This document shows positions 33,547-40,188 of a stretch of 64,000 bases of DNA, piece by piece. The notes below the pieces were generated by a model. That model saw only the letters and a list, made by a program, of their open reading frames with translations, ran no database searches and was not told where the DNA came from. The stretch is from an uncultured delta proteobacterium (GTDB lineage: Bacteria; Desulfobacterota; Binatia; UBA9968), in the NCBI GenBank assembly GCA_963727625.1, contig CAVSHR010000002.1, forward strand, positions 64,001 through 128,000, given 5' to 3'. The position numbers and the translations under genes were made by a program. Positions within the stretch are counted from its first letter, which is position 1. Each line of letters opens with the position of its first letter.

Positions 33547-34677
33547 CTACAGGCTGTAAAGCGCCGCGGCGTTTTTGCGATAAACTTTGTCTTTCATTTC
33601 GTCCGGCAAATGGGCTGAGTCCTTTTCGATGATTTCCTTGGAGAACGGCCAGGTGCTATCGGGGTGCGGGTAGTCCGAGCCCCACATGATATGGCCTTCG
33701 CCGAAGAATTGGATCAGGTGCAATCCAACCAAATCCGTTTGAAATGTCGCCCACACCTGACGCTTGAAGATTTCGCTCGGCATCGATTTCAGGGGAATCT
33801 CGGCCGCTTTGCGGCGCTCGAATTGCCGCTTGTAACGGTAGTCCATCTCTTGCACGACGAACGGAATCCAGCCGATGGCGGATTCGGCGAGGCAGAATTT
33901 CAAATTGGGATGGCGCTCCAGAGTGCCGAAGTTGAACATGTTGACGAAGGGATTGAAGAACGACGTGGCGCCGTTGCTGAGCCCCATGTCAAAGACGCCC
34001 TGGCGCTCGCCGGGCTTAACGGAATCGATTGTGGCTCTGACCGTTCCCTTCTGCACGCTGCCCCCGACGTGGTAGGAAACCACGATACCGGCGTCTTCAG
34101 CAGCGTCCCAGAACACGTCCCAGGGCTTTAAATTCATTTCCAGCGTGACGTCGTTGACCAGAAAGTTCGCTTCGCGAAACCCTAACCTCGCCACCCGGGT
34201 GACCTCATCTTTGGCGGCTTCGGCATCGACGGAAGAAAGCATGGCGACGGGAAAGAAGCGTTTCGGCGCGGTCTTACCGAAATCCAGCGCCCAGTCGTTG
34301 TAGGCCCGCACGCAGGCATTTCTCAATTCGGCATCGCCTACTTGCATGGCGATAATCGGGGGAAACATGAGTGAGGCTTCGACGCCGTCGCGATCCATGT
34401 CCGCGAGGCGCTTTTCCGGCGTGGTCGGCCGGTGTGCTTCGCCGACGCCGCCGCGGTCGAGAGCGAGCCGGGTGCGACTGGTCTTGGCAAACCAGCGCTC
34501 GCCGCGATAGTCGGCCCAGGTTTCTCCGTCGCACACCCAGTACTCGCCTTTTTCGCCGCGGTCTTCGACGTGAGGCGCGCGCTCGCGCAGCGATTGGGGT
34601 AGTCGTGCGGTCCATAAATCTCTGGGCAGATAACCGAGGTCAATGTGATCGTCAGCGGAAATCTTCGCGTAGGTCAT
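33547..34677 (-). CDS. Amidohydrolase family 2 protein
   Basis: ISADDHID, RLADMDRDGV, YNDW, AESAIGWIP, MWGSDYPH. Confidence 0.9.
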   Translation of the reverse strand: MTYAKISADDHIDLGYLPRDLWTARLPQSLRERAPHVEDRGEKGEYWVCDGETWADYRGERWFAKTSRTRLALDRGGVGEAHRPTTPEKRLADMDRDGVEASLMFPPIIAMQVGDAELRNACVRAYNDWALDFGKTAPKRFFPVAMLSSVDAEAAKDEVTRVARLGFREANFLVNDVTLEMNLKPWDVFWDAAEDAGIVVSYHVGGSVQKGTVRATIDSVKPGERQGVFDMGLSNGATSFFNPFVNMFNFGTLERHPNLKFCLAESAIGWIPFVVQEMDYRYKRQFERRKAAEIPLKSMPSEIFKRQVWATFQTDLVGLHLIQFFGEGHIMWGSDYPHPDSTWPFSKEIIEKDSAHLPDEMKDKVYRKNAAALYSL

Positions 34678-34729
34678 GGCACTCTCCTTTTTCGTCGCGG
34701 CGGCGGTGAATTCTAATAGGCTAACGCCG

Positions 34730-34759
34730 ATTCTCACGCCAATTTTAGGGCGGTGTCAA
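34730..34759 (-). promoter_or_regulatory. Candidate sigma-70 promoter for the amidohydrolase
   Basis: TTGACA-N18-GAGAAT on the minus strand, about 53 nt upstream of the ATG. Confidence 0.35.
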
Positions 34760-36992: not shown

Positions 36993-38132
36993 TCAGTCCA
37001 AATCGAAGCCGTAGAGGTTGGAGGTATTCTCAGCGAGAATTTTTCGTGCGTCGTCCTCGCCGACGCCGTTAAAATCTTTGGAGATCTTTTCGCGCGAGTG
37101 AGGCCAGAAGGTCGCGCTGTGCGGAAAATCTGAAGACCAGAGCAGATTGTCGACGCCGATGTCGTGCCGATGCGCGATGCCGAAGGTGTCGTCAATGAAA
37201 GTTGCATAGAGCTGCCGGCGAAAATAGTCGCTCGGTTTGAGCGTCAGTTTGGTCGAAAACGGGCTGCCATGCACGCGCGGTCCTTGGGCGTCGAAACGCT
37301 CATCCAGACGGTGCAGAAAGTAGGGAACCCAGCCGCAGTTGAGCTCCGCCGAGACAACCTTCAGGGCGGGGAATCGCTCCAAAACGCCGGACAAGATCAA
37401 CGTCGAAAAAGTGGTTTCGACTTCGTGCGAATTGATGCCTGTGGCGATCATTCTTTTCTTTGCGCTCGAGTCCCAATCCACCCAGCGAAAGCCCGCGAAT
37501 TCATGCAGGCTGAGGGGCATCGAAAGTTCCTGTGCCGCGGCCCAGAAGGGATCGTAGTCCTCCGCGTAAAAGGGCAACTCTTCCGGCGGCGAAGCCCAGA
37601 CGATTGCTCCCGCCAATCCTTTCCTGGCGCAGTTCGCCAGATCTTCGGCCGCCAGCGTGGGATCGTAGAGCGAGATCAGCGCCAAACCTTTGAGACGTTT
37701 GGGCGAATAACTGCAAAATTCGGCAAGCCAGTCGTTATAGACCTGAAAACAGGCTCGCTGAAAACCGGCGTCTCTGATCCAGAACATACGGAAGCCGAGG
37801 GTGGTATAAAGTACATCCCCCGCGACGCCGTCCTGATCCATGTCTTTGACTCGCTGCGCCGGGTCCCAGCCGCCGCGGTGCGCACCGGCGTAGGAAAAGC
37901 TTTTCAACAACTGTTGCAGCTCTGCGAGGTTCTTGTTGGCGCCGAAGCCCAGGATCACGTTGTGAGGCTGACGGTCCTGTTCGATGAACCACCAGGCCCC
38001 GGGTTTGCCTTCATACTCCGTCTCCATGTGCGGCGCGATATCGCGGTATTTGACCGGTAAACGTTCCTGCCAAAGTTTCAACGGCTCGCTCACATGCGAG
38101 TCGGCGTCCAGCAATACGGATGGGATCATCAT
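36993..38132 (-). CDS. Amidohydrolase family 2 protein
   Basis: DADSHV, GGWDPAQRVKDMDQDGV, YNDWLAEFC, LWSSDFPH. Confidence 0.9.
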   Translation of the reverse strand: MMIPSVLLDADSHVSEPLKLWQERLPVKYRDIAPHMETEYEGKPGAWWFIEQDRQPHNVILGFGANKNLAELQQLLKSFSYAGAHRGGWDPAQRVKDMDQDGVAGDVLYTTLGFRMFWIRDAGFQRACFQVYNDWLAEFCSYSPKRLKGLALISLYDPTLAAEDLANCARKGLAGAIVWASPPEELPFYAEDYDPFWAAAQELSMPLSLHEFAGFRWVDWDSSAKKRMIATGINSHEVETTFSTLILSGVLERFPALKVVSAELNCGWVPYFLHRLDERFDAQGPRVHGSPFSTKLTLKPSDYFRRQLYATFIDDTFGIAHRHDIGVDNLLWSSDFPHSATFWPHSREKISKDFNGVGEDDARKILAENTSNLYGFDLD

Positions 38133-38319
38133 TCACTCCTATGGCGCCCTGCGCCTGGATATTAGCCCGGCAATCTTGCGGCTCAATTGAGTCGGCTTGG
38201 TGTAACCTAAGACAAGCCCGCAGGAGGAGTCAAGCATAGAAAGATCGCAAGTGCGATTGACTCGCTATGGCCGTGCGAATTATGGAGAGATTGACAGTTG
38301 TCGAAGACAGGAGCACTCC

Positions 38320-39201
38320 ATGCCGTTTAGCTACGTCCAGTTCATGACCGAGTTGATGGCGCCGCAGCCCTATCCGCGACAGCCCAAATTTGCGCCGCCG
38401 CGGCTGGCGCCGTTGCGCAAGCCGATCGACCAAGCGACCATTGGTATTTTCACCAGCGCGGGGATCCAGGTGCGCGGCGACACTCTGTTGGCCGAGACCA
38501 ACGATCTTGCTTATCGCCTGATCGATCGTGACACCCCGTATTCGGAACTTACCATCGCGCATCAGACGCCGGTGCGAAGCTGGGCGCTCGACGACCTCAA
38601 CGTCGCCTTTCCGCGCGACCGGCTGATCGAGCTCGAAGCCGAAGGCACGATCGGTAAACTGGCGCCGAGAGCGGTTTCCATGGTGGGATCTATTTCAAAG
38701 TTTACCGAGCTGATAAAGACCGCGGTGCCGCGCATCAAAGCAGAATTCGACGCTCAGGGCGTCGATCTGGTTTTTCTTTTCCCCTTCTGACCGGCCTGCC
38801 ATCGGTCCGTTGGACTGATCGCAAGGGCGCTTGAAGCGAGGGGAATGCCCACGCTGTCGATGAGCACGCTTTGGGAAGTCAGCATGGCCTTCAAACCGCC
38901 GCGCACGCTCTTCTTGGATTTTCCGCTCGGCTGTCCGGCGGGCAAGCCGAACGAGCCTGCACTGCAGCGCGACATTTTGCGCGCGGCGCTGGCGGCGGCG
39001 CCGGATTTCGACACGCATTGGAAAATTGTCGAGCTGCCGTTTCAGTGGTCGGCGGACGGCAGCCGGTACTGGGAAGAGGAAGTCAAAGAATTATATCGCA
39101 GAGGCTTGGGCACGGTCAGACGTCACGTCGCCGACCATCAGGCGGTCGGGGAGCCGCTGCTCGATCAGGAGACGGAATTCTCGCTGCGCTGCCAATGCTA
39201 A
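38320..39201 (+). CDS. GrdB/PrdB-like reductase selenoprotein B; UGA 38788-38790 read as selenocysteine (Sec157), 293 aa
   Basis: AGGAG RBS; TIGIFTSAGI, DLNVAFPRDRLIELEAEGTIG, VDLVFLFPF-U-PACHRSVGLIARALEARGMPT, PPRTLFLDFPLGCPAG; ORF 38845-39201 is in frame. Confidence 0.88.
38795..38826 (+). promoter_or_regulatory. Putative bacterial SECIS element
   Basis: Upper stem ATCGGTCC/GGACTGAT with GTT loop 18 nt after the UGA; lower stem CCTGC/GCAAGG. Confidence 0.7.
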
Positions 39202-39207
39202 GCCGAG

Positions 39208-40188
39208 CTAGCGCTTTTTATAAACCTGATCGATGAATCCTTCCTTCACCAGGCGGTCGATGATCGAATTGTCGGCGAAGGTTTCGATGGGCAGGCCTTT
39301 CTTGCCCATGAACTCGAGGATGGTGGAGACGGCCTCGGCATCAACGCGCGGGACAGCGTCGACATACTTGGCGGCGTCGCTGTAAATTTCCTCGACCGCT
39401 TTCATTTCCTTGAGGCGCGTATAGCGGGCGACCGTTTTTAGGACGCGTTCCTTCTGTTGCGGATCGCGCAGCACGGCCACCCCTTCGATATAAGCGCGCA
39501 TGATTCGTTCCAAAGTTTCCGGCGCGCGCCGGTAAAAGTCGCGGGAGACGACAAGCTGGCCCATGGAATAGTGAATGCCGGAATCGGCGAGCTCGATGAG
39601 AATTCGATGCGGCACGTCGGTGCGCAGAGTGGCGAGAACCGCGGCGTCGATCTGGCGGTGGCGAAAAGCGAGTCCGACCTCGAGCGTGCCGCCGAGCTGG
39701 CGAATATTTACGGCATTCTCCAGTCCGACCCGGCGCAGCAGGATGCGGGTCAAATTATCCGTGGTGGCGCCGAAGCGTGAAACGCCAAAAGTCTTGCCGC
39801 GCAACTCTTCGACATGGTTGATCTCGGGATGGACCCAGAGCCGGAGGTAGGGGCGGTTAGCCAGGCTTGCCACCGAGACGATGGAGGCGCCGCGGAGCAC
39901 GGCTGCGATCACGGCGTTGGCGCCGGCGATGGCGGCCTGGACGTCGCCGCCGATCAACGCCGGCACCATGACCGGGCTGGAAGAGATAAAAATCAAGCTC
40001 GGCTCGACACCGTACTTGTCGAACGCGCCGATGTCTTTGGCCACCCACAGGCCCACTGCCGTCGGGCCGGTGGTGGAGTAGCCGAAATTAAGTTTGGCTT
40101 TTTCAGCAGCATCGGTTGCGCTGACCAAAAAGATCATAGCGAGTAAAACGAGCGGCATGCGCTTGAAAAAATCTGCTTGGCACTTCAT
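39208..40188 (-). CDS. NitT/TauT-family ABC substrate-binding protein
   Basis: Signal peptide; WVAKDIGAFDKYG, LRGKTFGVSRFG, FADNSIIDRLVKEGFID. Confidence 0.88.
   Translation of the reverse strand: MKCQADFFKRMPLVLLAMIFLVSATDAAEKAKLNFGYSTTGPTAVGLWVAKDIGAFDKYGVEPSLIFISSSPVMVPALIGGDVQAAIAGANAVIAAVLRGASIVSVASLANRPYLRLWVHPEINHVEELRGKTFGVSRFGATTDNLTRILLRRVGLENAVNIRQLGGTLEVGLAFRHRQIDAAVLATLRTDVPHRILIELADSGIHYSMGQLVVSRDFYRRAPETLERIMRAYIEGVAVLRDPQQKERVLKTVARYTRLKEMKAVEEIYSDAAKYVDAVPRVDAEAVSTILEFMGKKGLPIETFADNSIIDRLVKEGFIDQVYKKR

Follow-up and report, generated by a model that had tools for sequence, protein, structure and literature searches.

A probable selenocysteine-decoded, PrdB-like gene without an adjacent pyruvoyl partner in an uncultured Binatia genome

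The window analysed here, a stretch of 64,000 nucleotides (nt) from contig CAVSHR010000002.1 (C2 below) of an uncultured member of the Binatia (assembly GCA_963727625.1), very probably contains, on its plus strand at positions 38320..39201, a genuine gene for a selenoprotein resembling PrdB of D-proline reductase, in which one in-frame TGA would be decoded as selenocysteine (Sec, U). Comparing sequences, we take this to be a real selenoprotein gene because the aligned codon in its relatives is either a cysteine (Cys) codon or TGA, because a hairpin downstream of the TGA is conserved, and because the genome holds the Sec machinery, with TGA being otherwise a stop. As we read it, this one gene would give a selenoprotein that belongs to the GrdB/PrdB superfamily, stays in the cytosol, and stands alone, and which may act, as a selenoenzyme, on a different substrate outside Stickland fermentation.

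The list of open reading frames (ORFs) of the window presents the gene in two pieces, 38251..38790 and 38845..39201, which share one frame, and translation of 38320-39201 with TGA as Sec yields a complete product of 293 residues with only one non-standard codon, closed by the TAA at 39199-39201; the claim of the first-pass annotation, made from the letters alone, that the two ORFs are one frame across the TGA at 38788-38790 thus holds. That TGA (plus strand) encodes residue U157 in the context VDLVFLFPF-U-PACHRSVGLIARALEARGMPT, and the motif around it reads U157-P-A-C160-H161. The start at ATG 38320 (MPFSY) agrees with the N-termini of the aligned homologues, and a Shine-Dalgarno-like AGGAG is seen in the sequence at 38309..38313 on the same strand, 6 nt upstream. 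Assembled contigs of two public runs, X1 and X2, span the TGA and are identical there, which agrees with the assembly as far as one study, possibly of the source sample, can do so.

The codon carries the same signature across the relatives of the protein. A word-indexed protein search gave 271 proteins at E <= 0.001, and nearly all of the best 120 of these 271 matches are 292-294 amino acids (aa) long and 54-63% identical over their full length; a scan of 1.84 billion representative proteins gave 1224 matches at E <= 0.001, of which 303 reach E <= 1e-10 and 33 reach E <= 1e-30. In an alignment of the query (P0001) with 20 proteins chosen from those best 120 of 271 matches (A1), F156, C157 (U157 in the query), P158, C160, and H161 are invariant, as are C205, C291, and C293. 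A scan with one genome per species confirmed 163 relatives, from which 80 loci were kept, and at the codon aligned to U157 these have TGC or TGT in 60 cases and TGA in 20, so that the presence of Cys at residue 157 of homologues, which had been put forward as a check, is seen in 60 of the 80 loci as well as in all 20 aligned database proteins. The 20 TGA loci together with the window gene make up the 21 Sec forms discussed below. Conservation of the protein extends to both sides of the site, the residues downstream of the UGA included. Within the order to which the window belongs, 7 of 81 genomes, the window's own among them, contain an orthologue (62-100% identity), and each of the seven has a single TGA. 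Some database entries begin or end at the Sec site, P0126 corresponding to residues 1-156 and P0134 to residues 164-293 (156 and 131 aa); these fragments are the form in which split Sec genes appear in databases. Since Sec orthologues are stored as such fragments after standard gene calling, the selenoproteomes of these soil lineages are under-counted.

Shortly past the TGA lies a hairpin (38797..38823, plus strand) that we read as a bacterial selenocysteine insertion sequence (SECIS), as its folding energy, its conservation in Sec forms, and its frozen third codon positions suggest. Its upper stem of 8 base pairs (bp), one of them G.U, joins ATCGGTCC (38801-38808) to GGACTGAT (38812-38819) and encloses the apical loop GUU (38809-38811); the stem begins 10 nt past the TGA, and the loop G stands 18 nt past the A of that codon. 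The 30-nt hairpin segment has a minimum free energy (MFE) of -14.1 kcal/mol. The lower stem (38797-99 with 38821-23) is weakly kept, its pairs holding in 12, 17, and 21 of the 21 Sec sequences, respectively, and its 5' arm doubles as the codon of Cys160 (38797..38799, plus strand), the presumed resolving Cys of the UxxC motif; this codon is TGC or TGT, and either pairs with G38821, so that C-G or U.G pairing is preserved. Bacterial SECIS elements have been described as stem-loops shortly past the UGA with a small apical loop that contains a G (PMC1088965), and the hairpin fits that description with its 8-bp stem, its GUN loop, and its G 18 nt after the UGA. The genome's grdB genes and its second PrdB-like gene likewise have a hairpin, equally far from their UGA, whose 3-nt loop begins with G.

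The comparison of Sec with Cys forms gives a much stronger signal than the fold of the single sequence. All 21 Sec forms preserve the consensus hairpin CAUC(G/A)GUCC-GUN-GGACUGAUC, one of them (L077) with a single mismatch in the top pair, and their post-TGA codons +4 to +10 read CAT CGG TCC GTN GGA CTG ATC. Identity at the third positions of these codons is 0.90-1.00 among the 21 Sec forms, except for the loop position (0.62), compared with 0.33-0.71 in flanking codons; in the 60 Cys forms the hairpin is not kept, the residues vary, and so do the third positions (0.38-0.65). The mean MFE is -12.7 kcal/mol in 20 Sec forms versus -7.8 kcal/mol in the 60 Cys forms. The proposed structure pairs 93.9% of 231 cells, compared with 14.7-39.4% when the partners are slid by 1-3 columns, and in four loci a CGG to CAG change converts the G.U pair to A-U. 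The geometry given in the first-pass annotation (position, 8-bp stem, one G-U pair, and GUU loop) is confirmed, its 18-nt distance being that to the loop G, and its reading of the hairpin as a SECIS gains support from the 21 Sec forms that keep it, from the frozen synonymous sites, and from like hairpins elsewhere among the genome's selenoprotein genes. From a marsh metagenome run (X3), short contigs align to the window at 38782-38828 alone, across the SECIS, and lose their similarity to either side of it, a pattern that fits conservation of the hairpin at the nucleotide level among relatives; a further run (X4) behaves similarly, with matches to short conserved pieces only.

The genome is also equipped to decode the codon. 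Curated cut-offs are passed on contig C5 by selA (607 bits), selB (397 bits), selD (377 bits), and tRNA-Sec (76.7 bits), so that a search for this machinery, proposed beforehand as a check, recovered every one of these components; selA, selB, and selD lie in a row at C5:715112-719466, selD with an in-frame TGA of its own, and tRNA-Sec is at C5:768830-768920, about 50 kb away. Elsewhere TGA is an ordinary stop, ending 15 of the 39 long, non-overlapping ORFs of the window. Two thioredoxin-family matches in the genome, at C4:1602500 and C4:1055302, contain TGA as well.

With regard to family, the best model is TIGR04483 (D-proline reductase PrdB) with E = 5e-40, aligning residues 25-245 to profile positions 16-236 of 238, and this strong match backs a predicted homology with the GrdB/PrdB superfamily beyond what the marginal Pfam score reported below would convey. 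An AlphaFold2 model built on an 87-sequence alignment has a predicted local distance difference test (pLDDT) score of 95.2 and a predicted template modelling (pTM) score of 0.93, and it puts U157 between a strand (150-154) and a helix (158-173). At the extreme C-terminus, the protein ends in a Cys291-Gln-Cys293 motif (CxC; 39190..39198, plus strand), both Cys of which are invariant in the alignment; this tail is specific to the ~294-aa clade, being absent from the shorter family members, true PrdB among them, and it falls within the last ~15 residues of the model, which are of low confidence (pLDDT 72 and 51 in the final two blocks).

PrdB is tightly bound to PrdA, a pyruvoyl protein; proline linked to the pyruvoyl group is attacked at its alpha carbon by the Sec of PrdB, and PrdC then restores the enzyme (PMC11229817). 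Profile searches of the window's stretch of contig C2 gave zero matches to PF09338 (GrdE/PrdA), to GrdA, to another GrdB, or to thioredoxin (PF00085), and the genome's GrdE-like and GrdA proteins, used as tblastn queries, gave zero matches in the window and the 80 related loci. PF09338 was found in none of five genomes with Cys orthologues (two of Amycolatopsis, one of Mycobacterium, a Lustribacter chromosome, and an acidobacterium), the identical search giving 5 copies in the window's genome. For PrdC (TIGR04481), the best match in the genome reaches 46.5 bits against a cut-off of 490.

The genome at large does contain such genes. Four adjacent grdE-grdB pairs lie at C6:98272-100677, C11:160722-163166, C7:189522-191985, and C12:648772-651314, each grdB with one in-frame TGA, and a Sec-encoding grdA is at C12:41412-41843; together they are a glycine/sarcosine/betaine-type reductase set that is large for a soil genome of 6.6 Mb. 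Another GrdE/PrdA-like gene, the fifth (282 bits), stands at C5:241339-242646 (L118:5340-6647, minus strand), without an adjacent grdB and flanked by genes for acetate kinase, a peptidase S51, and a DHDPS-family protein. The first-pass annotation had stated that no grdA/C/D/E, prdA, or thioredoxin gene is nearby, which the profile searches of the window's stretch of C2 bear out and which does not extend to the rest of the genome, with its four pairs, fifth grdE-like gene, and Sec-grdA; 'stand-alone', in short, holds for the window gene, not for the genome. As to its description of the protein as GrdB/PrdB-like, the product does match the PrdB and GrdB models but fails their family cut-offs, and because of those failures we call it PrdB-like rather than PrdB.

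On this basis, we propose the following mode of action. SelB bound to the hairpin would deliver Sec-tRNA to the UGA, and the finished protein would act as the B subunit with its Sec does in D-proline and glycine reductases: U157, as a selenolate, would attack an electrophilic atom of the substrate, C160 would resolve the adduct to give a selenenyl-sulfide, and a thiol system would re-reduce the latter. We give this catalytic cycle about an even chance of being right as proposed. The flexible, invariant Cys291-x-Cys293 tail may itself perform the re-reduction, a tentative suggestion that we think rather less probable than the cycle as a whole. Because there is no pyruvoyl PrdA/GrdE partner, the protein should be neither a D-proline reductase nor a glycine/sarcosine/betaine reductase, and its chemistry is probably less demanding than cleavage of a C-N bond, since Cys takes the place of Sec in three quarters of the natural orthologues, yet the U151C variant of PrdB was reported to be inactive (PMC11229817). 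In its widest form, the proposal is that the ~294-aa clade, marked by U/C157-x-x-C160-H, C205, and C291-x-C293, would be a distinct, PrdA-independent reductase family that has kept the chemistry of the Stickland Sec subunit, in which a flexible CxC redox tail of its own has taken over from both the pyruvoyl partner and the external electron carrier, and which acts in soil bacteria, often aerobic ones, on a substrate other than an amino acid, Sec being ancestral to much of the clade and lost to Cys at least twice (in Acidobacteriota and Vulcanimicrobiota); we put this forward as a possibility that is at present on the doubtful side.

Several observations weigh against the selenoprotein reading or against parts of it. 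The scores that place the protein in the superfamily are well short of those of established members: with TIGR04483, whose cut-off is 300 bits, it reaches 137.4 bits, compared with 453.2 bits for P0186, a true PrdB that came up in the same search and served as a control; it passes Pfam GRDB (PF07355) marginally, with 23.1 bits against a threshold of 22 and over residues 28-153 only; and it fails TIGR01918 (selenoprotein B subfamily; 37.9 bits against 65.45), TIGR01917 (GrdB; 36.6 bits against 602.2), and the GrdF and GrdH models. Foldseek against the PDB gave zero matches at E <= 0.001, a wide search with VIA-align had as its best match Z = 7.3 to LacI-type or generic Rossmann-like domains, which is background level and gives no functional lead, and sequence searches of the PDB with the family profile and with true PrdB found no PrdB or GrdB structure. 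As for the hairpin, a 76-nt fold has z = -2.0, with 5 of 200 shuffles equally stable, which is modest when taken alone; a covariation test found zero pairs with changes on both sides, and 500 of 500 shuffles reached the observed values, the test being uninformative because the stems are nearly invariant; and an Rfam scan of 38600-39000 at E <= 10 gave zero matches. One Sec orthologue (L035, 6469-6516) reads U-P-A-Y-H, a Tyr codon (TAT) replacing the second Cys of UxxC beside an intact hairpin, which is a poor fit with an obligatory resolving Cys. The redox role suggested for the tail is conjectural, and across 81 loci (the window and the 80 others) no universal neighbour was found, and thus no conserved partner or operon that would hint at a substrate.

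In one rival reading the protein is a general thiol/selenol-disulfide oxidoreductase, engaged in redox buffering or protein repair without any small-molecule substrate, its likeness to PrdB being ancestral only. In its favour, UxxC is placed at a strand-helix junction in the model, the PrdB family has been grouped in surveys with redox selenoproteins that depend on thiols (PMC1088965, Table 3), Cys forms are common, and gene neighbourhoods vary; model searches, however, give a fold that is not thioredoxin-like, the residues conserved with the substrate-handling B subunits have been retained, and the neighbours are mainly catabolic enzymes and solute-binding proteins rather than redox-stress genes, so that we consider this reading unlikely. 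It is more improbable still that the product is a true B subunit that teams up in trans with a pyruvoyl proprotein from another locus, for which the fifth GrdE-like gene would be the candidate, and that the two together reduce proline, glycine, or an amine of this kind in the Stickland manner. The arithmetic of the genome invites the idea, with five GrdE-like genes for four full-length grdB genes, the fifth of them adjoining acetate kinase and having no B subunit beside it, and a Sec-grdA is present, just as U-x-x-C-H and the residues D62, R66, D92, and R195 are common to the window protein and true PrdB; yet the PrdB score of 137 bits is far from both the cut-off of 300 and the 453 of true PrdB, TIGR01918 is failed, GrdE and GrdA were not found in the window and the 80 loci, nor PF09338 in the five Cys-orthologue genomes, and no PrdC rises above its cut-off in the genome.

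Readings that deny the selenocysteine fare worse. Were the TGA a genuine stop, the mark of a pseudogene or of faulty sequencing, or the boundary of a split gene, two products or none would result, and gene callers do split the gene, as the 156- and 131-aa fragments P0126 and P0134 attest, while a look through public sequencing runs turned up no RNA set that contains it; this is nevertheless very hard to reconcile with a TGA found in 20 other genomes, with a protein conserved on both sides, including the 18 codons from the TGA to the next ATG, with a hairpin conserved at the nucleotide level, and with TGA in seven of seven orthologues of the order and in the contigs of both runs, and its probability is very small. 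Genome-wide reassignment of TGA to a standard amino acid (code 4 or 25) has only the open frame in its favour and is practically negligible, as TGA ends 15 of 39 long ORFs of the window, the aligned residue is Cys rather than Trp or Gly, and the Sec machinery is complete.

Returning to the PrdB-like selenoprotein, its history can be followed in a maximum-likelihood tree of 81 proteins, on which the Sec/Cys label needs 3 changes, and still 3 with 12 site residues masked and the long-branch rows L090 and L079 left out. Monophyly of the Sec forms is rejected (approximately unbiased (AU) test, p = 0.0007, log-likelihood lower by 68.5), the group having been named after the first tree and the root being a midpoint root. 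In Acidobacteriota and in Vulcanimicrobiota, Sec forms branch below the Cys clades, and one hairpin sequence is common to all Sec forms, a pattern that fits a single origin of Sec from which Cys was regained two or more times. In the tree, the window's PrdB-like gene groups with genes of Thermodesulfobacteriota and Binatia genomes. Two loci labelled Patescibacteria or Saccharimonadales (L061 and L055) have proteins that group among acidobacterial sequences, and their contigs may be mis-binned.

The immediate neighbours of the gene are an Amidohydro_2 gene on the minus strand (36993-38132), divergent from it, and a convergent gene for an NMT1/SsuA-like solute-binding protein, also on the minus strand (39208-40188), both where the first-pass annotation had seen an amidohydrolase and a solute-binding protein; a GST gene and then a gene for a thiamine pyrophosphate (TPP) enzyme follow beyond the latter. 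This gene order is retained only in the closest relatives (L027-L030). An Amidohydro_2 gene occurs in 27 of 81 loci and in three arrangements, which at first suggested a link, but the acidobacterial and actinobacterial copies are not orthologous to the window's neighbour, having their best matches elsewhere in the genome, and we dropped Amidohydro_2 as evidence because of this lack of orthology across phyla and because the genome has about 100 tblastn hits. A second Amidohydro_2 gene (33547-34737, minus strand) lies within 5 kb of 36993-38132, the superfamily being strongly expanded in this genome. NMT1-type binding proteins occur near the gene in 14 of 81 loci, a weak link, and other neighbours across the loci include aromatic-ring hydroxylases, FAA hydrolase, SDRs, luciferase-like monooxygenases, a pyrroloquinoline quinone (PQQ) dehydrogenase with cytochrome c, and regulators.

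PrdB-like proteins without a PrdA partner have no assigned reaction, and the cultivable Cys-form orthologues of Amycolatopsis, Catenulispora, Nocardia, and Mycobacterium offer organisms in which the function could be tested. The clade is in addition a natural Sec/Cys series with which to ask why selenium is kept or dropped. Current understanding is not overturned by the finding. In the Sargasso Sea, the UxxC 'proline reductase PrdB' was reported as the third most abundant known selenoprotein family, with 42 genes (PMC1088965); 235 Sec and 110 Cys forms of the PrdB family were counted in the Global Ocean Sampling (GOS) data (PMC2398784); PrdB-family selenoproteins were listed for Anaeromyxobacter and Geobacter (PMC1794560); and PrdB-like proteins have been described as being among the most widespread bacterial selenoprotein families (PMC9312934). 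That UxxC homologues of PrdB exist outside Stickland fermenters is therefore already known from the surveys of 2005-2008 (PMC1088965, PMC2398784, PMC1794560).

The window protein shares with this survey 'PrdB' family of Zhang, Gladyshev and co-workers the UxxC motif, a relation to pfam07355, the existence of Cys homologues, and an occurrence in non-Stickland organisms and habitats. The surveys treat the family as PrdB and, in their accessible parts, neither separate the ~294-aa CxC clade nor note the missing PrdA, and the accessible text of the literature searched gave no account of a CxC-tailed clade or of the absence of PrdA. A close system within the genome is the second PrdB-like paralogue (C8:319965-320723, minus strand; L119:5950-6760), which is 33% identical, has the motif U-P-F-C-H with one TGA, and is likewise stand-alone. 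It resembles the window gene in having a hairpin at equal distance, with a GUC loop, and an adjoining gene for a solute-binding protein (TctC-type); it differs in being shorter and in lacking the C-terminal CxC. Genes of this type are more widespread in the order, where the 81 genomes yielded 22 matches, 30-35% identical, and every one of these has TGA.

From GrdB, GrdF, and GrdH (PF07355, TIGR01917/01918), with which it has in common the superfamily, the Sec motif UxxC, and a SECIS similar to those of the genome's own grdB genes, the window protein is set apart by matching only the C-terminal third of the ~435-aa models (33-44 bits against cut-offs of 65-800), and its gene by having no adjacent grdE, whereas each of the four real grdB genes adjoins one. 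Compared with PrdB of Clostridium sticklandii and Clostridioides difficile, the U-x-x-C-H motif is in the same place, and the Sec is likewise encoded by UGA with a hairpin downstream. The window gene differs in having no PrdA, PrdC, or other prd gene near it, and its clade in the prevalence of natural Cys forms, against the reported inactivity of PrdB U151C (PMC11229817); the protein itself is longer than PrdB by ~25 N-terminal and ~45 C-terminal residues, and the C-terminal extension ends in the invariant CxC.

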